Source of the DNA: a virus | Taxonomy: Duplodnaviria; Heunggongvirae; Uroviricota; Caudoviricetes | Virus record (IMG/VR): IMGVR_UViG_2778260997_000018 | Strand: one strand, 5' to 3' | DNA length: 22,685 nt | Shown here: positions 1 through 15,823 of the stretch, piece by piece | Position numbering within the stretch: position 1 is the stretch's first letter | How the letters are laid out: each line of letters starts with the position of its first letter | Position numbers and translations under genes: made by a program | The notes under the pieces: model-generated | Databases searched by the model: none | Told to the model about the DNA's origin: nothing | Seen by the model: the letters and a program-made list of their open reading frames with translations, nothing else

Positions 1-1053
1 TTACGGGGTAATGCCAACCGCTGTCGCCACTTTGTCGCCACTTGGCAGCGTTGCCAGAGGATTGAAACGGAGCGCCGTTTCCAGATGATCCGGTGCCAGA
101 TGTGCGTAACGCATAGTCATTTTTATATCGTGGTGTCCGAGAATTTTTTGTAAGGCCAGAATGTTTCCACCCGACATCATGAAGTGCGCCGCAAACGTAT
201 GGCGCAGAACGTGTGTGAGTTGACCGCGAGGGAGCACGATAGACGTTTTTTCCATCACGGATAAAAATTGAAAATAGCAGTCTGTGAAGAAATTGAACCC
301 ATCAAGCGCCATGATCTCTTCGTAAAGCTCTTTACTGATAGGGATGCTTCTGTTTTTCTTCCCCTTCGTTCTTACAAAGGTAATTCGGTATTTGGTCACC
401 TGTGAACGAGTAAGATTTACGGCTTCTCGCCAGCGTGCGCCTGTGCTTAAGCATATCTTAACTACCAGTGCCAGAATTGGGTCCTGACGTTTGCAATCAG
501 CCAGTAATTCAACAATCTGCTCATGGGTAAGCCATGCCATCTCTTTTTCTGCGATGGTGAATTTTCGCATGTTCTCCAGTGGGTTCGGATACGACCATTC
601 GCCCAGGCGGGATAGTTCGCTAAAAACACTACTTAGATAGCTTTGCTCCAGGTTAATGGTGACCGGGCTTGCTCCTTTCTTCCATTTCTCGCTGAAGTAG
701 ATCTCACCTGTCAGGCGTTTATCTCGATAGTGGGCAAACATTTTAGAGGTTAGATCAGTTGCAAGGGGATTGCCCAGAGCGTCAACCATCAGCAGCAATT
801 TGTCATAGACATGCTGCCCAGCAGTCAGTGATTTACCATGTAGTTTGAACCATAGCTCAACCACGTCTTTCAGTGTTCGACGATCCACTGATTCACCTAG
901 CCAGGGCTTTGCTTCGGTTTCTTCCATCGTGTGACGCTCAAAAGCCAGTGCTTCGCCTTTGGTGGCGAATTGTTTACGCACACGACGCCCACTACGTCCG
1001 GCGGGGTAACATTCGCAAAGCCATTTTCCTGTGGTGAGTTTTCGTACAGCCAT
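1..1053 (-). CDS. int: Tyrosine integrase (P2/186-type site-specific recombinase)
   Basis: Minus-strand ORF with stop TAA (reverse complement of 1-3). C-terminal region carries the tyrosine-recombinase signature (LRHTFAAHF ... GHHDIKMTMRYAHL, i.e. R/H-x-x-R/Y catalytic residues). ORF-track start at 1131 trimmed to the ATG at 1053 (MAVRKLTTGKW...), which resembles P2-family Int N-termini. Position at the prophage end, next to the repressor, fits. Confidence 0.9.
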   Translation of the reverse strand: MAVRKLTTGKWLCECYPAGRSGRRVRKQFATKGEALAFERHTMEETEAKPWLGESVDRRTLKDVVELWFKLHGKSLTAGQHVYDKLLLMVDALGNPLATDLTSKMFAHYRDKRLTGEIYFSEKWKKGASPVTINLEQSYLSSVFSELSRLGEWSYPNPLENMRKFTIAEKEMAWLTHEQIVELLADCKRQDPILALVVKICLSTGARWREAVNLTRSQVTKYRITFVRTKGKKNRSIPISKELYEEIMALDGFNFFTDCYFQFLSVMEKTSIVLPRGQLTHVLRHTFAAHFMMSGGNILALQKILGHHDIKMTMRYAHLAPDHLETALRFNPLATLPSGDKVATAVGITP

Positions 1054-1241
1054 AAAAAATGCCCTCCAATAGAGAGCATTTTTACTGTATGTATAACCAG
1101 TGTCAATGTATGAAATCCTGCGACCATACATCTCACTGAAGCCATAATGAAGTAGGCTATTCTTTTTGCTATGTGATCATGTAACTTTTGCGGTTAACCT
1201 GTGGCTCATTTTTATTTTAGGCGCAGATATAAAAGCAAAAG

Positions 1242-3948: not shown

Positions 3949-4802
3949 GCACCATCCTGAAATGGACGGGAAATAAAACCGCCATTATGTCCGAACTGAA
4001 AAAACACCTTCCTGCTGGCCCGCGACTGGTTGAACCTTTCGCGGGTTCCTGTGCTGTGATGATGGAGACGGATTACCCCAGCTATCTGGTTGCGGATATT
4101 AATCCTGATTTAATCAACCTCTATAAAAAGGTTGCTGCTGATTGCGAGGCGTTTATATCTCGTGCCAGAGCTTTATTTGAGGAAGCAAACAGGGAGTTGG
4201 CTTATTACAACATAAGACAGGAGTTTAATTACTCCACTGAAATTACTGATTTCATGAAAGCGGTATATTTCCTGTATCTCAATCGTCATGGTTACCGTGG
4301 GTTATGTCGTTATAACAAGAGCGGGCATTTCAACATTCCATACGGTAATTATAAAAATCCGTATTTCCCTGAAAAAGAAATTCGCGCATTTGCAGAGAAA
4401 GCCCAGCAAGCAACGTTTATCTGCGCCAGCTTTGATGAAACGCTGGCGATGTTGAAGGCGGGGGATGTGGTGTATTGCGATCCGCCTTATGACGGTACGT
4501 TTTCCGGCTATCACGCTGACGGCTTTACTGAAGATGACCAGTATCACCTGGCATCCGTTCTTGAACATCGGTCATCAGAAGGACATCCGGTCATTGTTTC
4601 TAACAGTGACACATCCCTGATCCGTTCGCTGTATCGCAATTTTACTCACCACTATATCAAGGTAAAACGCAGCATCGGCGTAGCAGCTGGTGAGAGTAAA
4701 TCAGCAACAGAAATCATTGCTGTTTCCGGGCCGCGCTGCTGGGTGGGATTTGATTATTCGCGTGGCGTGGATAGTTCTGCCGTGTACGGAGTACGTGCAT
4801 GA
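3945..4802 (+). CDS. dam: DNA adenine methyltransferase (Dam-like, D12 class N6-adenine MTase)
   Basis: Motif I-like FAGSCAV (SAM-binding), catalytic DPPY (CDPPYDG) and a Dam-like N-terminus (ILKWTGNK). ATG 3945 with GGAGG (3935-3939); ORF-track start 3885 is an upstream extension. Stop overlaps the A start (ATGA). Confidence 0.85.
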
Positions 4803-7213
4803 GCCATGCCGATATGAGCAACTGCTGCGGCTTTAAAGAGGCTGCCGCATCGTTCTCATGGAACAGCCCGAAAAAGGCCATTAACCCTTATCTGGACCCG
4901 GCGGAAGTTGCGCCGGTTTCTGCGTTTTCAAACCTGATCACTCTGTACGCTGCCGATAACGAGCAGGAACAACTGCGCCGCGAGGCACTGAGTGATCAGG
5001 TCTGGGAGCGTTATTTCTTTAATGAATCCCGTGATCCTGTCCAACGCGAAATAGAGCAGGATAAGCTCATTAGCCGGGCAAAGTTGGCGCATGAGCAGCA
5101 GCGTTTTAACCCGGACATGGTCATTCTGGCAGACGTCAGCGCCCAGCCCTCCCATATCAGCAAGCCGCTGATGCAACGTATTGAATACTTCAGCAGCCTG
5201 GGCAGGCCAAAGGCTTATTCCCGCTATTTACGTGAGACGATTAAGCCATGTCTGGAACGACTGGAGCATGTACGCGACAGCCAGCTATCTGCATCTTTTC
5301 GTTTTATGGCAAGCCATGTAGGGCTGGACGGCCTGCTGATTCTGCCTGAAATGAGTCAGGATCAGGTGAAACGCCTGTCTACCCTTGTCGCTGCGCATAT
5401 GAGCATGTGCCTTGATGCAGCTTGTGGTGATTTGTATGCCACCGATGACGTTAAGCCAGAAGAAATCCGCAAGACATGGGAAAAGGTGGCAGCGGAAACC
5501 CTGCGTCTGGATGTCATCCCGCCTGTGTTTGAGCAACTCCGTCGGAAAAGAAACCGCCGTAAACCCGTGCCCTATGAACTCATTCCGGGTTCGCTGGCGC
5601 GTATGTTGTGCGCCGACTGGTGGTACCGGAAATTATGGAAAATGCGTTGCGAATGGCGGGAAGAGCAGTTGCGTGCTGTCTGCCTGGTCAGCAAAAAAGC
5701 ATCTCCCTATGTCAGCTATGAAGCCGTGATGCATAAACGTGAGCAGCGCCGCAAGTCACTGGAGTTTTTCCGTTCTCATGAACTGGTGAACGAAGAGGGC
5801 GACACGCTGGATATGGAAGACGTGGTAAACGCCAGCAGCAGCAACCCGGCGCACCGCCGCAATGAGATGATGGCCTGTGTTAAAGGTCTGGAGCTTATCG
5901 CGGAAATGCGCGGTGACTGCGCCGTTTTCTACACCATTACCTGTCCGTCACGTTTCCATTCCACGCTCAATAACGGCAGACCAAACCCAACCTGGACAAA
6001 TGCGACGGTAAGACAAAGCAGCGATTATCTGGTCGGCATGTTTGCTGCATTTCGTAAGGCGATGCACAAAGCCGGGTTGCGCTGGTATGGCGTGCGGGTG
6101 GCTGAGCCGCATCATGACGGTACAGTTCACTGGCACCTGTTGTGTTTCATGCGCAAAAAAGACCGCCGCGCCATTACTGCATTGTTGCGTAAGTTTGCCA
6201 TCCGTGAAGACCGCGAGGAACTGGGTAATAACACTGGTCCACGCTTTAAATCTGAGCTGATAAACCCGCGCAAAGGAACGCCGACAAGCTACATCGCGAA
6301 ATACATCAGTAAGAACATTGACGGGCGTGGTCTGGCTGGCGAGATCAGCAAGGAAACGGGTAAATCCATGCGTGATAACGCTGAATACGTTAATGCCTGG
6401 GCGTCTCTGCATCGTGTTCAGCAATTCCGCTTCTTTGGTATTCCGGGACGTCAGGCTTACCGTGAACTTCGCTTGCTGGCTGGTCAGGCGGCAAGGCAAC
6501 AGGGTGACAAAAAAGCAGGTGCGCCGGTACTGGATAACCCGCGTCTTGATGCCATTCTGGCTGCTGCTGATGCTGGTTGTTTTGCCACCTACATCATGAA
6601 GCAGGGCGGCGTACTGGTTCCCCGCAAATATCACCTCATCAGAACCGCTTATGAAATCAACGAAGAGCCAACCGCCTATGGCGATCACGGTATTCGTATT
6701 TATGGCATCTGGTCACCCATTGCAGAGGGCAAGATCTGCACTCATGCAGTGAAGTGGAAAATGGTTCGTAAGGCCGTTGACGTTCAGGAGGCGGCAGCCG
6801 ACCAGGGCGCTTGCGCCCCTTGGACTCGTGGCAATAACTGTCCCCTTGCTGAAAATTTGAACCAACAAGGGAAAGACAAATCAGCTGATGGGGATACCAG
6901 GACGGACATTACCCGCATGGATGACAAGGCGTTGCACGATTACCTGCACAGTATGAGCAAAAAAGAGCGCCGGGAACTAGCTGCAAGGTTACGCCTGGTG
7001 AAACCGAAACGGCGTAAAGACTACAAACAGCGAATTACAGACCATCAGCGACAGCAGCTCGTCTATGAACTGAAGTCCAGAGGATTTGATGGCAGCGAGA
7101 AAGAGGTCGATTTACTCCTTCGCGGCGGCAGTATTCCGTCAGGAGCAGGCCTGCGTATCTTCTATCGGAACCAGCGTTTGCAGGAAGATGATAAGTGGCG
7201 AAACCTGTATTAA
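4799..7213 (+). CDS. A: Replication initiation endonuclease (P2 gpA / 186 A family, rolling-circle initiator)
   Basis: 804 aa ORF in the position of P2 A; contains a conserved HxH-type block (VHWHLLCF) and the Tyr-rich region [13 protein letters not shown] typical of the gpA nicking-joining active site. Start not certain (in-frame ATGs at 4799 and 4814). Confidence 0.8.
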
Positions 7214-7305
7214 TTACGCGGGTTAACAATTCGTGCTCTTAATAATACCAGGCATATCAGGCTGATGAACGTAAAAAAACGTTTTACATCAGTAAGATTA
7301 TTATA

Positions 7306-7325
7306 TACTGTAAATATAAACAGTG
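7306..7325. promoter_or_regulatory. LexA (SOS) box
   Basis: TACTGTAAATATAAACAGTG matches the E. coli LexA consensus TACTGT-(AT)4-ACAGTA (CTGT-N8-ACAG). Lies about 40 bp upstream of a small ORF and the DinI-like gene, overlapping a probable promoter (TTTACA at 7283-7288, TATACT at 7304-7309). Confidence 0.7.
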
Positions 7326-7366
7326 GTTATACATACAGTATTGCTTGTGGTGTCATAGGAGGAAAG

Positions 7367-7555
7367 ATGCAGGACTATTTTTTGGAGTCTTTGAAGCTCC
7401 AGCGCATTGATTTTTTTCTTAAACTTGTAGCGGCTAGTGAGTGTAGTGATGAAGAGAAGGGGCTGGCTTTGCAGTGGGTTTCTGAACTGACAGATGAACT
7501 CATGGCAAAAATCAGAACCCACGAATACAACCGCTCAATGGATGTCATCAGCTGA
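7367..7555 (+). CDS. Hypothetical small protein (62 aa), first gene of the SOS-regulated operon
   Basis: ATG 7367 with AGGAGG (7357-7362) 4 nt upstream; the ORF-track start 7265 would include the LexA box itself, so the shorter start is preferred. Confidence 0.45.
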   Translation: MQDYFLESLKLQRIDFFLKLVAASECSDEEKGLALQWVSELTDELMAKIRTHEYNRSMDVIS

Positions 7556-7565
7556 GGTGACTTTT

Positions 7566-7799
7566 ATGCGCATTGAAATAATGATCGATAAAGAGCAGAA
7601 GATTAGCCAGTCTACCCTGGACGCCCTTGAATCCGAGCTTTACCGCAATCTGCGCCCCCTGTATCCAAAAACGGTAATTCGCATCCGCAAAGGTAGCTCT
7701 AACGGTGTGGAACTGACCGGACTGCAACTGGACGAAGAAAGGAAGCAAGTGATGAAAATTATGCAGAAGGTGTGGGAAGACGACAGCTGGCTGCATTAA
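7566..7799 (+). CDS. DinI-like protein (possible Tum-type SOS-inducible antirepressor)
   Basis: 77 aa beginning MRIEIMIDK...LESELYRNL...IRIRKGSSNGVELTGLQLDEERKQVMKIMQKVWEDDSW, closely resembling E. coli DinI (MRIEVTIAK...WESADDWF). GAGG 7 nt upstream of the ATG. Downstream of the LexA box; located at the right genome end like tum in 186. Confidence 0.75.
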   Translation: MRIEIMIDKEQKISQSTLDALESELYRNLRPLYPKTVIRIRKGSSNGVELTGLQLDEERKQVMKIMQKVWEDDSWLH

Positions 7800-7921
7800 G
7801 AAACGTTGCTGGCGTCTGAACTTGCTTCTGGCGTCAGCAAGGTTGAACAACGAGCTGTGCGAGGCGTTAGTTGATATAGTATCAATATATAAAAGGTTTC
7901 TCGAAGTTTTAAGGTAAGGTT

Positions 7922-8641
7922 ATGACAACTATTAACAAGCATGGGTTATCTAGAACAATTCCTGAACCTGTAAAACTGGAGGTAAGGCAGCGCTGTGGCT
8001 TCGGTTGCGTTGTTTGTGCTTCTCCCATTGTTGAGTATGAGCATGTAATTCCCACATACGCTGATGCAAAGGAGCACTCACCAAATGCAATAGCACTACT
8101 TTGTCCTACGTGCCATGCGAAAGTAACGAAACGTCTTTACTCTAAAGAGAAAATAATTAAAGCAATGGAATCTCCTGCAGCCTTACAAAAAGGGAATGTG
8201 GCCGATATATTGGACTTTTCTGATAGGCATCCAACAATAATATTTGGTGGTGCGACGTTTGAATCCTGTACTGTACCAATAATGTTTCAAAATGAGCCAT
8301 TGTTAACCATTGAAAAAGAAAATAATGCTTTTCTTATTTCGGGTAAATTTTACGATAGTCAAGGTATTGTTAATCTTGAATTAATTAAGAATGAGTGGGT
8401 TTGTAGTGCAAGGCATTGGGATGTTCAGGTTGTCGGTCCTAGAATAACTATTATAGAAAAAAGGAAAGGTCCTCGTTTAATTATTAAAGTTGATGCGCCT
8501 GAAAGATTGATTGTGGAAAGATTAGATATGTTGGTTAAGGGGACTCGGATTGTAGGAGACGAACACAAGCTAAGAGTAGGTCCACATCAATTTCACAACT
8601 GTGGAGTTTCAAATTGCAATATTGGTTTCTGCTTTGGCTAA
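7922..8641 (+). CDS. HNH-nuclease domain protein with ~170 aa C-terminal domain of unknown function (cargo)
   Basis: N-terminus has the complete HNH signature: CGFGCVVC (C-x2-C) ... EYEHVIP (E-x-H-[IV]-x-P) ... NAIALLCPTCH (N-x-x-x-L-C-x2-C-H). AT-rich codon usage unlike the phage backbone. Confidence 0.7.
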   Translation: MTTINKHGLSRTIPEPVKLEVRQRCGFGCVVCASPIVEYEHVIPTYADAKEHSPNAIALLCPTCHAKVTKRLYSKEKIIKAMESPAALQKGNVADILDFSDRHPTIIFGGATFESCTVPIMFQNEPLLTIEKENNAFLISGKFYDSQGIVNLELIKNEWVCSARHWDVQVVGPRITIIEKRKGPRLIIKVDAPERLIVERLDMLVKGTRIVGDEHKLRVGPHQFHNCGVSNCNIGFCFG

Positions 8642-8754
8642 CTGGAGGTTGGAAAAAGACCATTTCCTATAAGCTGAGTATTTCGTACATTTTTGCCAAC
8701 GCATGTCTATGCCGCATGAAATCGCATGATCGTTTGAGGATCGTTTTTGCTGAT

Positions 8755-8780
8755 GCCCGCCAGAGCTGGCGGGCTTTTGC
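8755..8780 (+). terminator. Rho-independent terminator candidate
   Basis: Stem GCCCGCC (8755-8761) / GGCGGGC (8768-8774), 6 nt loop, then TTTT (8775-8778). Confidence 0.5.
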
Positions 8781-8823
8781 TTGTGTCATGCAGGTGCATG
8801 AAAACCACTACACAAAGCGGGCA

Positions 8824-8842
8824 GGCGTGGCGGGGATACGAG
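8824..8842. other. Candidate cos (cohesive end) site of the prophage
   Basis: GGCGTGGCGGGGATACGAG: the first 13 nt match my recollection of the 19-nt cohesive end of 186/P2-type phages (GGCG[T/A]GGCGGGGAAAGCA...). The position between the right-end accessory genes and the portal gene is where cos lies in P2/186 prophages. Confidence 0.35.
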
Positions 8843-8897
8843 CGCGCGCTATGTGGTATAGGCCTTAATTTAGTATGATTCAAGAGTGTCGGGATCT

Positions 8898-8926
8898 TTG
8901 CGCTGATCAGTCCTAAGTTATATGAT
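8898..8926 (+). promoter_or_regulatory. Candidate sigma70 promoter for the GHKL/STAS operon
   Basis: -35 TTGCGC (8898-8903), 17 nt spacer, -10 TATGAT (8921-8926), about 30 bp upstream of ATG 8956. Confidence 0.35.
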
Positions 8927-8955
8927 AAGAAAAATGCATAAAAAAGGTTCGGTTC

Positions 8956-9930
8956 ATGGGGTTAGGATTAAAAGACGCTATTGTGCATACCGCTGCGTTT
9001 CATCAAAAGGAAACTAATGAATTGCAATTGCCAAACAACCATTGGCATCCTGGTTTTATCACTGTCTTAGCAGCTTACGTGAATCATCACAAAATTACCG
9101 AAGATAACTGCGTTTTGTCATGCCCTGACTATATGCGAGCTATCAATTTACATGGTGCTTTATGGGGCGAGGATCAGTATCAACAGGAACGTGTAAATGT
9201 TGGAAGAAATTACAGTTTGGTTACAGCATTAACCAATGTTGAAGCTGTTGACGTTGCCACTGGTAGTATTAACAGTTGTGTAAGGCAGTTAACATTCCCT
9301 GATCGTGATCCGAGAGATTATCCCAAGGGACTTACAGATCTAACTCATGTTATAGGTGAGCTTCACGATAACGTTTGGTCGCATGGAAAATCAACGGGTT
9401 TTTCTTTTGCACAACGTTCGGCTGTACCCCACACACAAAGAAAAGAGCACTATTTAGAATTTTCTTTGGCGGACTGTGGGTTAGGATTTCTCCGAGAATT
9501 GCGGCGAGCTGGTATACCCGGAATTGAGACTCACCAGGATGCGATCGCATGGTGTATTCAAGAGGGACATTCATCTAAGCATGCTGATTTGCAGGATGAT
9601 TGGGCACAGCAACTTCCCCAGGATTTTATTGGGGGTAGTATGTTTGGTCACGGGGTTTCGGTCAAAGAAAAAGATAATAATCATCAAGGGCTTGGGTTAT
9701 ATCACTTGATGAAATTGATAAAAACATATAATGGGGAATTGCAACTGGCTTCAGGAAATGTATGCTTAGAAGCAATAGGTGATGAAGTGAGCTATACTGA
9801 ATTACGTACTAAATGGCCGGGTGTAGCAATTTCTTGCCGTTTTAAGATTCATGAACTGGCAGTCGATAAAGATAGCGAAGAAAATGACCCTCAGCTTATG
9901 GAAATAATGCGGGCGTTAGGAGGAGAGTAA
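8956..9930 (+). CDS. GHKL-superfamily ATPase/kinase-like protein (HATPase_c-like C-terminal domain; ~130 aa N-terminal domain of unknown function)
   Basis: Bergerat-fold motifs in order and correct spacing: N-box GELHDNVWSHG (aa 134-144; 9355-9387), G1 box ADCGLGF (aa 172-178; D-x-G-x-G), G2 box GLGLY (aa 245-249). Resembles RsbW/SpoIIAB-type serine kinases. AT-rich; stop overlaps the next start. Confidence 0.7.
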   Translation: MGLGLKDAIVHTAAFHQKETNELQLPNNHWHPGFITVLAAYVNHHKITEDNCVLSCPDYMRAINLHGALWGEDQYQQERVNVGRNYSLVTALTNVEAVDVATGSINSCVRQLTFPDRDPRDYPKGLTDLTHVIGELHDNVWSHGKSTGFSFAQRSAVPHTQRKEHYLEFSLADCGLGFLRELRRAGIPGIETHQDAIAWCIQEGHSSKHADLQDDWAQQLPQDFIGGSMFGHGVSVKEKDNNHQGLGLYHLMKLIKTYNGELQLASGNVCLEAIGDEVSYTELRTKWPGVAISCRFKIHELAVDKDSEENDPQLMEIMRALGGE

Positions 9931-10268
9931 TGAACAAAATCGCATACAAGTTACCCGAGGGTGACCTGGCTTCGCGCAATCAGGCTATCCCCCAACGACA
10001 CAAGATTGAAGGGTTCATTAAAGAAGGGTATACCGTAGATTTGGACCTGAGCGGTGTTTATTCAATTTCAGAATCATACTCTGATGAAATCTTTGGTGTT
10101 TTGGTAGTGAAATTCGGTGTAACCAAAGTTTTGAGTCAGGTTAAGGTTCGCAATGCATCCCCTTCAATTTTAAAAAGTATTGCAAAAGTGATCCAACGTC
10201 GTAGCAATGAAGTAGCATCAAAAAAGGTTCATTCCGTTGGATTTGATGGTTTATACGCCGTTTGTTAA
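9930..10268 (+). CDS. STAS-like small protein (anti-sigma-factor-antagonist-like / DUF4325-like), partner of the GHKL protein
   Basis: 112 aa. Segment VDLDLSGVYSISESYSDEIFGVL resembles the STAS/SpoIIAA core (LDLSGV-x-F-x-DSSG). ATG overlaps the upstream stop (TAATG) with GGAGGA 7 nt upstream, indicating translational coupling. Confidence 0.6.
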   Translation: MNKIAYKLPEGDLASRNQAIPQRHKIEGFIKEGYTVDLDLSGVYSISESYSDEIFGVLVVKFGVTKVLSQVKVRNASPSILKSIAKVIQRRSNEVASKKVHSVGFDGLYAVC

Positions 10269-10286
10269 TATATGGTTAGTTAGATA

Positions 10287-10310
10287 AAAGGCGCTGAGAT
10301 TAGCGCCTTT
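10287..10310. terminator. Bidirectional rho-independent terminator between the cargo operon and the portal gene
   Basis: AAAGGCGCT (10287-10295) / AGCGCCTTT (10302-10310) with a 6 nt loop; A-run before and T-run after, so it is functional in both orientations. Lies between convergent genes. Confidence 0.55.
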
Positions 10311-10314
10311 TCTT

Positions 10315-11352
10315 TTATTCCTGAGCACCTAAAACATAGTCATCAAAACGTATTACTTCTGCACCCACCCATTCGTTTAGTTCATGTAGTCGCTTCTGTA
10401 GTGGCATCAGTTCATTGCGGACAAATACACGACTCGCTTTCTCTACATCCCCAAACCCCCCAACATTATTCGGCATAATCCCCATCATCTGTGGCGGAAC
10501 ACGATGCGCGGCCATCATGTCATCACGACTCACGTTCTTGATGTTCAGAAATTCATCTTTCGCCGCGACTTCTGATAACGGGATAATCTGAAGTCCGTCC
10601 TTTTTGCCGTTAGGCGAGTACATAAACAGATTGCGGAAGTTACCTGGTCCTTTGGCGCTTTTCATTGCATTGCGGAGGTTGTTTACATCCTCCTGGTTTT
10701 GTGCGGCGTCGGTCATGTACATGATGAAGCCTGCATGACTGCCGTTAATGTAATACTTCCGGCGGAACAGCGTGGCGGACTCGTTGAGCAGGGCTGACGG
10801 AATGGCAGAAAGATAACCGGGCAGGCCGTAGATCTCCTGGTTGATGTCCGGTTCCATCAGATGAAAAATGCTGCCTTTCGTGAACTGATACGGCTGGGTT
10901 GTCATACCGTATTGCACAAACCAGTAGGTATCCAGGTCTAACCCGCGTCGGGTGTATTTTGCCAGAGCAGGCTCAAGGGCGATAACTTCACCGAAGCGGT
11001 TCGTGCGTTTCTCTAGGTAGGCGTTACCAAATACCAGATAGTCCTGCACAAAACGTGAAAAAGCCTGCTGGCTGAGCAGCGGGTGAGGGATGTAGGTACT
11101 GGTCAGAATGTTGCATTTCACCGCAATTGGTGAGCTGTGATGCACGGCGGCGCGGAAGGTTCGTGCCAGTCCGTCAAAGCTGACGGGCGGCTCATACCAG
11201 CGATCCATCTGTACGCATTCCACATAGTCCAGCAGTTCACGGCGGTCCAGAACAGGAACGGGATCGCCAAAGCTGAATGCTTCGGCTGAAGTTTGGCTTT
11301 TATGCTTGAGCTGATTCGTCGCCGCAGCGCGGTTTTTCTTACTCTTTCCCAT
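10315..11352 (-). CDS. Q: Portal protein (P2 gpQ family)
   Basis: 345 aa; length, sequence character and position (leftmost late gene, convergent with the cargo, upstream partner of the terminase) match P2 Q. ATG at 11352 overlaps the P stop (TGATG); the ORF track starts one codon earlier at TTG. Confidence 0.9.
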   Translation of the reverse strand: MGKSKKNRAAATNQLKHKSQTSAEAFSFGDPVPVLDRRELLDYVECVQMDRWYEPPVSFDGLARTFRAAVHHSSPIAVKCNILTSTYIPHPLLSQQAFSRFVQDYLVFGNAYLEKRTNRFGEVIALEPALAKYTRRGLDLDTYWFVQYGMTTQPYQFTKGSIFHLMEPDINQEIYGLPGYLSAIPSALLNESATLFRRKYYINGSHAGFIMYMTDAAQNQEDVNNLRNAMKSAKGPGNFRNLFMYSPNGKKDGLQIIPLSEVAAKDEFLNIKNVSRDDMMAAHRVPPQMMGIMPNNVGGFGDVEKASRVFVRNELMPLQKRLHELNEWVGAEVIRFDDYVLGAQE

Positions 11353-13118
11353 CAAAAAATCTCCACAATATTGCTGGTATTGGCGGACTCGCCCTGCAGC
11401 GGTTCATTAAACAGTGCGTGCATTGTTGCCCAGGCCAGATCGGCGTGGCTGGCTTCTTCGCTGCGGCTGGCTTCATAGGTCGGGCGGTTGCCGCTGGCAG
11501 TGGTGGCGCGACGGATTGCCATAAAGGACTGCGCTATGTCGGTGTGCCCGGCGTCAAACTCCAGGCGGCGGTGACTGATAATGTCGTAGGCCTTGAGTAC
11601 CAGAGCGTTTTTAACGTTGGGGTTGTAGACAAACTCCCGGACGGCAGGAAAAAACGCTTTCACGTTCTCGTAAACCCCGTGACCAACGCCGGTTGAGTCG
11701 ATGCCGATATAGGTCACGTTGTACTGTTCGGTCAGTTTTTTGATGGCGTCAGCCTGGGCGCGAAAGTCCATCCCGCGCCACTGGTGACGCTCAAGAATGC
11801 GGAACTTGCCGCCCGGCACGGCTGGCGGTGCCACCACCACGCATCCGGCACTGTCGCCGTTCTGCGTACCTTTCGCCGGGTCATAACCGATCCACACTTC
11901 GCGCCAGCCAAACGGGCGCAGTGCCAGTGCATGAAAGTCGGTCCAGACTTCCCAGCTGTCCACCATGCACGCCTGCAGCTCGCTGAGCGGGAACACGGAC
12001 GCGAGATCGTCCACGAACTCGCACATCAGCAGGTTCTGGTATTCGTCCGGGCTGTACTCCATGCGTAGCTGGTCGAGGTCGAACAGGTTACAGCCGCCGC
12101 GCACCGCATCTTCCACGGTGACTATCTGGCGGTATTGCCCGTCTGCGCACAGCAGGCCGGGGGCCAGATTGCTGTGGGACAGGTCGATGTCCACCTTATC
12201 GGCTTTGTTGCGCCCACGGTTGAACAGCGCACCGGACCAGAACGGATAAGCACTGTGTGTCAGACTGGATGGCGTGGAAAAATAGGTCTGTCGCCATTTT
12301 TTGTGAATAGCCATACCGGAAGCCACTTTGCGCAGCTCCTGGAATTTCGGTATCCAGAAATATTCATCCAGATACAGGTTGCCGTGGTAACTCTGGGCCG
12401 TGCGGGCATTGGTGCCGAGGAAGTAAAGCGTGGCCCCGTTGGGAAGCACCATCGGATCGCCTTTCAGTTCCACATCCACTTCTTTGGCGAAGTCGATGAT
12501 GTACTGCTTAAAGACGTGAGCCTGTGCCTTACTGGCAGAAAGGAAAATCTGGTTACGTCCGGTAAGCAGGGCGTCAATCAGGGCTTCACGGGCAAAGTAA
12601 AAGGTCGCGCCGATCTGGCGTGACTTCAGCAGGTTGCGGATGCGGTTGGTTTTTCCGGCTTCCCACCAGTGGCGCTGGTAGTTGAACATGGAGGAATGGA
12701 AGATTTCTTCCAGTTTCTCTATCTGTTCATCGGTGAAAACATTCTTTTCCGGCTGACGGCGCGGGCCTTTGTTGCGGTTGGCGACGTTAGGGTTTAAGTC
12801 GGCTTCGTTGCCGCCATTGTTAAACTTGCCGATCCGCGCGTGGCGCTCCGACTGGCGCGCCAGCAGGTCAATTTCTTTGAAATCTTTCCCTTCTTTGTGC
12901 TCCTTCATAATGAGCTGGCAGTAACGTGCGGCGGTGGTGAGCTGCATCTGATCCAGCGGCCCATAGTCACCCCACTTGTCGCGTTTCTTCCAGCTGTGAA
13001 CGGTTGCAACTTTCTCGCCCAGCATTTCAGCAATGCGGGCTACGCGGTATCCCTGAAAGTACAGCAGCATGGCCTGCCGACGGGGATCGAGATCTGCGGG
13101 TGTCAGTGTGGTGTTCAT
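11352..13118 (-). CDS. P: Terminase large subunit (P2 gpP family ATPase/nuclease)
   Basis: 588 aa (P2 P about 590 aa), start ATG at 13118. Contains a Walker A-like GATFYF and acidic nuclease motifs. Divergent from the O-N-M-L operon as in P2. Confidence 0.9.
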   Translation of the reverse strand: MNTTLTPADLDPRRQAMLLYFQGYRVARIAEMLGEKVATVHSWKKRDKWGDYGPLDQMQLTTAARYCQLIMKEHKEGKDFKEIDLLARQSERHARIGKFNNGGNEADLNPNVANRNKGPRRQPEKNVFTDEQIEKLEEIFHSSMFNYQRHWWEAGKTNRIRNLLKSRQIGATFYFAREALIDALLTGRNQIFLSASKAQAHVFKQYIIDFAKEVDVELKGDPMVLPNGATLYFLGTNARTAQSYHGNLYLDEYFWIPKFQELRKVASGMAIHKKWRQTYFSTPSSLTHSAYPFWSGALFNRGRNKADKVDIDLSHSNLAPGLLCADGQYRQIVTVEDAVRGGCNLFDLDQLRMEYSPDEYQNLLMCEFVDDLASVFPLSELQACMVDSWEVWTDFHALALRPFGWREVWIGYDPAKGTQNGDSAGCVVVAPPAVPGGKFRILERHQWRGMDFRAQADAIKKLTEQYNVTYIGIDSTGVGHGVYENVKAFFPAVREFVYNPNVKNALVLKAYDIISHRRLEFDAGHTDIAQSFMAIRRATTASGNRPTYEASRSEEASHADLAWATMHALFNEPLQGESANTSNIVEIF

Positions 13119-15172: not shown

Positions 15173-15823
15173 ATGAGCCTGAGTCCCGCACGGCAGCATC
15201 GCCTGCGCGTTCAGGCTGAACAGGCCGCCCGCGAGGGTGGCAGTGTTCGCCACGCGTCGGGCTATGACCTGATGCTGCTGCAACTGGCGGAAGACCGCCG
15301 CCGTCTCAAGGGCGTTCAGTCCACGGTCAAAAAAGCGGAAATCAAGGTGGAGCTGCTGCCGAAATATGCCGCCTGGGCGGAGGGCGTTCTGGCTGCCGGA
15401 GGCGCTCAACAGGATGACGTGCTGATGTACGTGATGCTGTGGCGCATTGATGCCGGAGATTATGCAGGGGCGCTGGAGATCGGGCGTCATGCCCTGCGTC
15501 ATGGCTGGGTGATGCCGCTGGGTAACCGCAACGTGCAGACCGTGCTGGCAGAGGAAATGGCAGACGCGGCGCAGAGCGCAATGCTTGCCGCCACCGGCTT
15601 TGATGCCGATCTGTTGCTGCAGACGCTGGAGCTGACAGACGGTCTGGATATGCCGGACCAGTCACGGGCGCGTCTGCATAAAGCGATTGGCGCTGTCCTG
15701 AGTGAAAGCAACCCGGCTTCCGCCCTTAATCATCTCAACCATGCGTTACAGCTCGATCCTCGCTGTGGCGTGAAAAAAGACAAACAGCAGCTGGAGCGCA
15801 GATTGCGCAATGACAGCCGCTGA
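15173..15823 (+). CDS. M: Terminase small (endonuclease) subunit (P2 gpM family)
   Basis: 216 aa; ...RHASGYDLMLLQLAEDRRRLK...QQDDVLMYVMLWRIDAGDYAGALEIGRHALRHG... matches P2 gpM. Confidence 0.85.
   Translation: MSLSPARQHRLRVQAEQAAREGGSVRHASGYDLMLLQLAEDRRRLKGVQSTVKKAEIKVELLPKYAAWAEGVLAAGGAQQDDVLMYVMLWRIDAGDYAGALEIGRHALRHGWVMPLGNRNVQTVLAEEMADAAQSAMLAATGFDADLLLQTLELTDGLDMPDQSRARLHKAIGAVLSESNPASALNHLNHALQLDPRCGVKKDKQQLERRLRNDSR

Follow-up and report, generated by a model that had tools for sequence, protein, structure and literature searches.

The stretch of DNA analyzed in this work, which is 22,685 nucleotides long and will be referred to as the window, was found by means of an open reading frame (ORF) map and Pfam scans to contain a prophage of the P2 family, arranged in the permutation that is usual for prophages. 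The positions of its main features are summarized in Table 1. For the portal protein Q, the terminase large subunit P, the scaffold O, the capsid protein N and the terminase small subunit M, the reading frames are all open and give strong matches in Pfam; those for O, N, and M are located on the plus strand. Of the terminase subunits, gpP would be the enzyme that cuts the packaging site (cos) and gpM the protein by which this site is recognized. The virion maps of P2 and 186 start at cos, just outside of Q, and end after the accessory genes that follow gpA; therefore, in a prophage, cos is expected between the genes on the gpA side and Q, which is where the site described here is found. In the window this site lies between the accessory genes on the gpA side and Q, with Q and P transcribed towards it, and the annotations of P2 and 186 show this order as well. 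On the gpA side, the homology to related prophages continues past the DinI/Tum-like gene until position 7870. The LexA-box-like palindrome listed in Table 1 is the only perfect CTGT-N8-ACAG sequence in the window and it is similar to p95, the SOS promoter of phage 186, in whose record a LexA site is annotated before tum. The LexA box, together with the Tum-like gene, suggests SOS induction.

Table 1. Features of the prophage and of the cos region in the 22,685-nt window (positions are those of the window).
Feature	Position	Strand	Evidence
Integrase	1-1131	-	ORF map, Pfam
Replication endonuclease gpA, conserved right-hand anchor of the cos-proximal variable region	4799..7213	+	Pfam Phage_GPA, E = 4.8e-127
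LexA-box-like palindrome CTGTAAATATAAACAG, upstream of a small ORF and the DinI/Tum-like gene	7308..7323	+	Motif search
DinI/Tum-like gene, last conserved gene before the right-end slot	7566..7799	+	Pfam DinI, E = 1.3e-22 (score obtained with the longer ORF 7494-7799; coordinates from the RefSeq homologue in strain KCJ3K291)
Right-end cargo slot, HNH endonuclease cassette	7871..8700	+	BLAST breakpoints 7870/8700
HNH endonuclease gene, 239 aa, G+C ~37%	7922-8641	+	Pfam HNH, E = 2.4e-5
Conserved cos block	8699..8849	+	Conservation profile; BLAST block ends; alignment with P2/186/P4 junctions
Five GCATG motifs at 8701, 8714, 8724, 8787 (minus strand) and 8796	8701..8800	.	Motif count
G+C-rich hairpin followed by TTTTG	8755..8780	+	Terminator-like in scan; fold energy
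Predicted 19-nt cohesive-end sequence GGCGTGGCGGGGATACGAG	8824..8842	+	Homology to P2/186 ends; identity to SEN8 cos
CGCGCGC, sole conserved sequence on the virion left-end side of the cut	8843..8849	+	GCGCGC invariant in window/Fels-2/P2/186/P4; conservation stops at 8849
Left-end cargo slot, two-gene operon	~8850..10327	+	Homology to strain KCJ3K291 stops at 8858 and resumes at 10328
GHKL-like ATPase (candidate), 324 aa	8956-9930	+	Motifs; weak fold matches
STAS-like DUF4325 protein, 112 aa	9930-10268	+	Pfam DUF4325 (PF14213), E = 9.3e-10
Two-way terminator-like hairpin AAAAGGCGCTGAGATTAGCGCCTTTT	10286..10311	.	Scan; between STAS-like gene end and Q end
Portal protein gpQ, conserved left-hand anchor of the variable region	10315..11355	-	Pfam Phage_portal, E = 2.4e-17
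Terminase large subunit gpP	11352..13118	-	Pfam Terminase_6N, Terminase_6C, Terminase_5
Terminase small subunit gpM	15173..15823	+	Pfam Phage_term_smal, E = 2.2e-40

A preliminary description of this DNA, made from its letters alone, had placed a putative cos site inside the cargo region on the grounds that the 13-mer GGCGTGGCGGGGA matches the start of the cohesive ends of 186 and P2, and had remarked that the bases following it diverge. These points are all borne out by our analysis. The 13-mer is located exactly at 8824-8836 and it is the sole exact copy in the window, where its chance expectation is ~7e-4 copies (2 x 22,685 / 4^13), and the cohesive ends given there are the same as those annotated at bases 1-19 of the GenBank records of P2 (GGCGAGGCGGGGAAAGCAC) and 186 (GGCGTGGCGGGGAAAGCAT). 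Over the entire 19-mer, the window sequence is identical to the 186 cohesive end at 15 of the 19 positions (4 mismatches) and to that of P2 at 14 (5 mismatches). The positions at which it differs from P2/186 are 14, 16, 17, and 19, so that four of its last 6 nt are unlike both of these phages, the window reading on as ...ATACGAG. When the window was searched with the P2 and 186 19-mers allowing for up to 3 mismatches no match was obtained, the reason being that the 3' part of the 19-mer truly differs at 4-5 positions, and not that cos is absent. Neither this search nor that for exact copies of the 13-mer found any other cos-like sequence in the window.

The complete 19-mer has been published as the putative cos site of the Salmonella phage SEN8, which forms plaques and whose virions have been purified on CsCl (PMC5427200). 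The SEN8 record starts with this 19-mer, annotated as 'putative cos site' (the site was found during annotation, and is labelled 'putative'), and the record ends with the base that matches position 8823 of the window. The identical 19-mer is also present in Fels-2 and in the Yersinia phage MLG42. Additionally, the cos variants of the phages SEN4 and SEN5 that were described in a companion paper end in ...ACGAG (PMC5261728), which shows that variation in the 3' part of the overhang is already on record for this family.

The similarity to the known packaging sites is not limited to the cohesive end. To compare the regions on both sides of the cut, the circularized junctions of P2 and 186 were assembled by joining the two ends of each record. 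The junction in the window (...GGTGCATGAAAACCACTACACAAAGCGGGCA / GGCGTGGCGGGGATACGAG / CGCGCGC) aligns well past the 13-mer with those of P2 (...GGTGCATTAAAACCGCCCCGTGAAGCGGGCG / GGCGAGGCGGGGAAAGCAC / TGCGCGC) and 186 (...ACTGCATTAAAACCGACCCATAAAGTGGGCA / GGCGTGGCGGGGAAAGCAT / TGCGCGC), and the junction of the satellite P4 also aligns with the window block. The invariant columns in this alignment include four GCAT motifs, AAAACC, AAG.GGGC, GGCG.GGCGGGGA, and GCGCGC. P2 and 186 thus have in common with the window a 19-nt element that starts with GGCG(T/A)GGCGGGGA and is followed by GCGCGC, the sequence AAAACC..AAG.GGGC upstream of it and the GCAT repeats, whereas the left-side sequence that P2 and 186 share beyond position +26 is absent from the window. 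The alignment against the P2 and 186 cos regions, which the preliminary description had proposed as a check that could disprove its reading, shows similarity in both phages.

The limits of this block are sharply defined. Among 43 unique cos regions of the Fels-2 type, conservation was at least ~90% at most positions of 8699-8849 and at background level outside of it, and BLAST blocks stop at 8700 and at 8849-8858. Over the 150 nt around the site, identity to Fels-2-type phages is 89-97% and E-values reach as low as 1e-63, which goes far past chance similarity. There is a strong asymmetry in the block, as it comprises ~125 bp of virion right-end sequence, which includes AAAACC..AAGCGGGC, and the 19-mer, and only 7 bp (CGCGCGC) past the 19-mer towards the left end. 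Also present in the right-end part are a small inverted repeat (TCATGCA/TGCATGA) and the cluster of GCATG motifs, of which there are 5 copies per 100 bp here as compared to 50 copies in the whole window. Four of the GCAT cores are invariant in the window, Fels-2, P2, and 186, and they are present in P4 too. These repeats constitute a putative recognition site of the terminase small subunit.

In view of the junction alignment with P2, 186, and P4, the identity of the 19-mer to that of SEN8, the position between gpA and Q, and the presence of intact terminase genes, the block at 8699-8849 is, with high probability, the cos packaging site of a Fels-2/SEN8-type prophage of the P2 family (Peduoviridae), in which the cut positions can be predicted. 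The placement of a putative cos within the cargo region, between two accessory loci, was thus well chosen. The same arrangement is seen in a broader sample: a scan of IMG/VR for the pattern GGCGWGGCGGGG-N8-GCGCGC returned 120 loci, and in nearly every one with a detectable Q the motif was located just upstream of Q, which was on the opposite strand. An alternative that deserves consideration is that the block is derived from a cos site but belongs to a defective prophage, in which it persists as a relic that is never cut. Such prophages exist, as seen from the E. coli 'phage' 500465-1, in which the 19-mer has suffered a 1-nt deletion (GGCGT-GCGGGG) and IS100 genes are found beside a truncated gpA. 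In the window, however, the block has the consensus base at essentially every position conserved among the 43 Fels-2-type sites, the 19-mer is identical to that of a viable phage, and in the visible part of the prophage int, gpA, Q, P, O, N, and M each have an intact ORF whose Pfam match is full-length. We therefore consider a relic to be unlikely, and a functional cos site remains our preferred reading.

The cos block separates two cargo slots. Under the map convention for P2, in which Q is at the left end, the HNH gene is right-end cargo and the operon consisting of the GHKL-like and STAS-like genes is left-end cargo, and both had been assigned correctly. The gene content between gpA/DinI and Q varies among otherwise similar prophages, as is characteristic of a hotspot. 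To examine how the contents of the two slots are distributed, the region 7200-10400 was used as a BLAST query against 5,426 complete E. coli genomes. About 1,260 of these genomes match some part of the query and none covers 80% of it. The HNH cassette was detected in 21 and the left operon in 25 of the 5,426 genomes, and no complete E. coli genome among them contained both together. The cassettes being so rare, zero co-occurrence is also the number expected under independence.

The genomes in which only one of the cassettes is present are informative in this regard. In strain KCJ3K291, the HNH cassette and cos are the same as in the window (99.7% identity), the left slot is empty and Q follows ~160 bp after cos. 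In strain EEC_W5, it is the right slot that is empty, the cos block following the DinI-side sequence after only 9 bp, and the left operon is the same as in the window; the same left operon is also found in strain PSS-15, where the right slot contains a different gene. The breakpoints in these comparisons, viz. 7870/8700 and 8849-8858/10328, fall at the edges of the conserved block. Relatives whose left slot is empty have a conserved spacer of ~145 nt with its own terminator, and the cassette in the window replaces this spacer from position 8850 on. Because each of the cassettes recurs without the other and in other combinations of slot occupancy, these results support the inference that the window is a recombinant of two rare cassettes that circulate separately, in agreement with the earlier suggestion that two independently acquired morons flank the packaging site. 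One could also suppose that the HNH gene and the GHKL-like/STAS-like operon arrived in a single acquisition, as one block spanning cos, since the two are adjacent and both have a low G+C content (~37-44%, versus ~55% in the structural genes). However, with each cassette occurring at 99-100% identity beside an opposite slot that is empty or differently filled, with both of them being found at one place in 0 of the 5,426 genomes, and with the intervening cos block being the lineage's own conserved sequence, a single acquisition appears very improbable, and the separate acquisition of the two cassettes is favored. Gene cargo on both sides of cos is also present in SEN8 and Fels-2, and this layout is therefore compatible with a working phage.

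The preliminary description had also noted a terminator hairpin just upstream of the 13-mer, and this too is seen in our analysis. The hairpin GCCCGCCAG-AG-CTGGCGGGC occupies positions 8755-8774 and it is followed by TTTTG, ending at 8779. Its stem is 8-9 bp long (the scan, in which it was found to be terminator-like, gives 8 pairs, 7 of them G-C, and a 4-nt loop followed by TTTTGCTTGT), and its fold energy is -20.1 kcal/mol (z = -3.5), with 0 of 200 shuffled sequences folding as well. In Fels-2-type phages the stem of this hairpin is invariant and the loop is variable. In 186 and P4, a dyad with a different stem sequence and lacking the T-run is present at the same position, and P2 lacks the hairpin and retains the rest of the block. 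The hairpin and T-run probably form an intrinsic terminator, as predicted by the scan, for the rightward SOS/cargo transcript, and the hairpin may, in addition, be an element of cos, since the dyad in 186 and P4 occupies the same position. The notion that the 150-bp block is just a terminator or regulatory region closing the Tum/cargo operon, with the packaging site elsewhere, e.g. beside Q, would explain the strong hairpin with its T-run and the location of the block directly after a rightward operon, but it is scarcely credible, as there is no second cos-like sequence in the window, the annotated physical ends of P2 and 186, and P4 as well, can be aligned with the block base by base, relatives with an empty left slot have it ~150-180 bp from Q as in P2 and 186, and P2 keeps the remainder of it without any hairpin. 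With regard to other regulatory elements, P2 and 186 have an annotated terminator (tQ/tW) at the place equivalent to 10286-10311. A terminator-like hairpin on the minus strand at 8805-8820 was judged to be weak and not treated as a real element, as its stem consists of 5 bp, one of them G-T. Around the slots, the promoter scan gave 7 sites versus 8.5 expected from shuffled sequence, i.e., not above the shuffled level, and a GATAAGAAA motif shared by the window and Fels-2 downstream of cos, which was considered as a conserved promoter of the left slot, was present in only 4 of 45 distinct left flanks and was rejected.

Taking the block as the cos site, the following course of events can be proposed. 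By analogy with P2 and 186, the phage genome would circularize upon induction, and the terminase (gpM and gpP) would recognize the ~125 bp that lie towards the right end from the cut, with their GCAT(G) repeats, dyad and AAAACC..AAGCGGGC. Based upon homology to P2 and 186, from which both the nick positions and the 19-nt length of the overhangs are predicted, the terminase would introduce staggered nicks between 8823 and 8824 in the top strand and between 8842 and 8843 in the bottom strand. This should produce virion DNA with 19-nt 5' overhangs of the sequence GGCGTGGCGGGGATACGAG, whose left end would start at 8824 and whose right end would finish at 8842. To the left of the cut, only the 7 bp of CGCGCGC would be constrained beyond the 19-mer, so that foreign DNA could adjoin the cut, as it does in the satellite P4; our statements on this minimal cos are drawn from our own alignments and from secondary citations. 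In this way, the cos block could provide homology at a fixed place amid two variable slots, and homologous recombination would exchange each slot singly, anchored in cos at one of its borders and in either Q or the DinI-side sequence at the opposite one. The rightward transcript, which would comprise the LexA-controlled Tum operon and the HNH gene and start near 7308-7323, most likely ends at the hairpin before crossing cos.

The use of the two slots differs among the lineages represented in the IMG/VR sample. For loci with cos of the Fels-2/SEN8 type, the distance from cos to Q exceeded 400 bp in 24 of 27 cases (median 1,769 bp) and that from gpA to cos exceeded 1 kb in 14 of 34. With the P2 type of cos, the distance to Q was ~175 bp in 17 of 19 loci, and gpA-to-cos, the side of old and tin, was greater than 1 kb in all 15 (15/15). 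Among the 186-like sites, the left slot was filled in 10 of 26 loci and gpA-to-cos was greater than 1 kb in 17 of 19. The side that is used for cargo thus depends upon the lineage, the Fels-2/SEN8 type employing mainly the cos-to-Q side and the P2 type almost always that from gpA to cos. With 1,472 bp from cos to Q and 1,610 bp from gpA to cos, the layout of the window is ordinary for its lineage.

Of the known systems, the closest are SEN8 and Fels-2 (Felsduovirus), which possess the identical 19-mer and a 150-bp block of ~90-92% identity at the same position between DinI and Q. Their cargo differs from that of the window: in SEN8 the left side carries a hypothetical gene plus an HNH gene and the right side encodes a DNA-binding protein, and in Fels-2 STM2723.1 is on the left and STM2726 on the right. 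In P2-type phages, the spacer from cos to Q is nearly always ~175 bp and cargo (old, tin) is found only on the right. The satellite P4, with its cos and psu-int hotspot (PMC9122126), resembles the window in that its right-end block, 19-mer and CGCGCGC lead straight into cargo, the gop gene, 7 bp after the cut, whereas it differs in having a 19-mer of the P2 type and no terminase of its own, being packaged by that of P2. The cos site of lambda (cosQ-cosN-cosB) is likewise a site of staggered nicks flanked by an asymmetric region of terminase recognition. It has no sequence homology to that of the window and yields 12-nt overhangs, and in the window, unlike in lambda, the terminase genes are remote from the putative recognition block, which is on the side of the virion right end.

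The interval between gpA and gpQ has been described as a cos-adjacent defence hotspot of P2-like phages, which often holds more than one system; the authors of this work speculated that cohesive ends stimulate recombination at the hotspot (Rousset et al., 2022, PMC9122126). The gpA-gpQ hotspot is presented in the same manner in a 2026 survey (PMC13586616), and a passage in PMC5694545 mentions the position between cosL and gpQ as a suggested hotspot of insertion, with credit to Dodd and Egan (1996) and Nakayama (1999). The cos site, this variant of the 19-mer and the layout with flanking cargo are thus already known for this phage family, and there is nothing new in them. However, whereas the published surveys take gpA-gpQ as one locus, our results indicate that it is split by cos into two slots that assort independently. 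The block boundaries, this independent assortment and the lineage bias of the side that is used are the modest additions of the present analysis, and they represent a refinement rather than a new phenomenon. For annotation, the exact boundaries of the slots, the extent of the cos block (8699-8849) and the virion ends predicted by homology at 8824 and 8842 are of use, and the slot boundaries should also be useful for mining P2-like prophages for defence genes. On a broader level, it is possible, though we put this forward only tentatively and would not be surprised to see it fail, that cos is a shared anchor which divides the hotspot, perhaps with the aid of terminase-made ends, that the lineage sets the preference for a slot (right in the P2 type, left in the Fels-2 type), that cos needs just 7 bp on its left, and that the GHKL-like/STAS-like pair is an undescribed anti-phage module of the partner-switching type that is carried by several kinds of mobile elements.

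With regard to the cargo itself, the product of the HNH gene is named 'HNH endonuclease' in RefSeq. The right slot, which is reduced to 9 bp in strain EEC_W5, is filled by other genes in strain PSS-15, Fels-2 and 186, and no similarity was detected between the HNH protein and Orf97 of 186 or STM2726 of Fels-2, which are of similar size and in the same slot. The slot is therefore common to these phages and the gene is not. Comparison of the cargo proteins with PADLOC, NCBIfam and PDB sequences revealed nothing significant; the PADLOC matches were all marginal, namely those to mREase_IV (E = 0.0095) and PDC-M65A (E = 0.0059) and that of the STAS-like protein to a segment of DrmA (E = 2.3e-6).

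The more promising lead from this locus is the cassette in the left slot and not cos, as the family of the 324-aa protein and its STAS-like partner is widespread and wholly unannotated. The 112-aa protein passed the gathering cut-off of PF14213 (38.5 bits versus 23), and its homologues are named 'STAS-like domain-containing protein' in RefSeq. The 324-aa protein had no match in Pfam, NCBIfam or the PDB sequence search, and all 295 of its homologues that were found are named 'hypothetical'. In this family, the motifs E135-x2-D138-N139-x3-H143-G144, D173-x-G175-x-G177, and G245-L-G-L248 are invariant or nearly so, and they resemble the N-box, G1, and G2 motifs of GHKL proteins. The AlphaFold model of the protein (pLDDT 85) has as its top PDB fold matches exclusively GHKL proteins, including ParE, GyrB, histidine kinases, Hsp90, and the anti-sigma-F factor, these matches being weak (E of at least 6e-3 and TM of at most 0.27). 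The conserved motifs and the weak fold matches make a GHKL-like nature of this protein plausible, rather than established. The combination of a kinase/ATPase and a STAS protein is reminiscent of partner-switching modules, of which SpoIIAB/SpoIIAA is an example, and a defence role for the pair would be a guess. Lastly, the GHKL-like and STAS-like genes are also found together in an unrelated mobile element of Pseudomonas fluorescens, and the pair therefore behaves as a portable two-gene module.

The use of the two cargo slots was measured relative to cos in the IMG/VR loci retrieved by the cos pattern scan (L011–L130), and among these loci which slot is filled is dependent upon the lineage. With a P2-type cos, the spacer between cos and Q is almost always fixed at about 175 bp and the cargo is found on the gpA side; with a Fels-2/SEN8-type cos, 0.5–3.5 kb of cargo is usually present between cos and Q. 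The cohesive-end 19-mer occurred in at least 27 variants in these loci; GGCG(A/T)GGCGGGG and the trailing GCGCGC were retained in all of them, both having been demanded by the search pattern itself.

Three of the contigs show a P4-like gene order, in which an alpha-primase-like gene is followed by a gene for a protein of 270–354 aa just upstream of cos, and then by cos. In L071 and L130, cargo follows cos and the integrase is of the P4 type, and the L024 contig ends about 570 bp past cos. Because the variant 19-mer GGCGTGGCGGGGCTACGAG is common to all three contigs, satellites seem to follow Fels-2-type helpers in their cos variant, with their cargo beginning directly after cos, as it does in P4.

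Features discussed in the text (cos of IMG/VR contigs in cos-plus orientation)
Feature	Locus	Position	Remark
LexA-box-like palindrome CTGTAAATATAAACAG	window	7308-7323	sole perfect one in the window
Symmetric hairpin AAAAGGCGCTGAGATTAGCGCCTTTT	window	10286-10311	flanked by A-runs and T-runs
Counterpart of left-slot gene pair	L131	6001-7271	Pseudomonas fluorescens mobile element
cos	L071	8926	P4-like gene order
cos	L130	3625	P4-like gene order
cos	L024	4570	P4-like gene order

Although GCATG is rarer than expected in the window as a whole (50 copies vs. 93 ± 10 from shuffles), five of its copies crowd into a 100-bp stretch of the cos block (8701-8800). The P4 and 186 junctions contain dyads (CCGCGCC..GGCGCGG and CGCCAG..CTGGCG, respectively) that are as far from the cut as the window dyad at 8755-8774 is, but their stem bases are unlike those of the window and they lack a T-run; no dyad is present at the P2 junction. 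The retention of a dyad in P4 and 186 with other stem bases and no T-run hints that the window dyad contributes to cos function in addition to any part in terminating transcription.

The left slot, between cos and Q, holds an operon (8956-10268) encoding a 324-aa protein and a DUF4325 STAS-like protein. The family of the 324-aa protein is widespread and carries no annotation; GHKL-like motifs are kept across it, and the fold matches of this protein, which are weak, are all to GHKL. In the Pseudomonas fluorescens element, the counterpart pair is neighboured by AlpA, DUF927, and Toprim genes. The pair is a candidate for a portable module acting in defence or in partner switching. The STAS-like gene and Q converge on the hairpin that separates them, which could terminate the transcripts of both. 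In relatives whose left slot is empty, the terminator of the ancestral spacer from cos to Q has a different sequence, so the hairpin probably came in with the cassette.

A small ORF and a DinI/Tum-like gene are found downstream of the LexA-box-like palindrome, a layout mirroring the annotated SOS-controlled p95-tum arrangement of phage 186. This site and layout suggest that antirepression in the window prophage is SOS-inducible, and transcription of the HNH cargo is perhaps SOS-linked too.

Escherichia phage 500465-1 (features noted at ~3124 and 255-1487), listed as a phage in the database, is probably a defective prophage: a 1-nt deletion is present inside its cos 19-mer (GGCGT-GCGGGG), IS100-type genes adjoin a truncated gpA, and its portal gene is split. 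Its left slot holds a TIR-domain gene.
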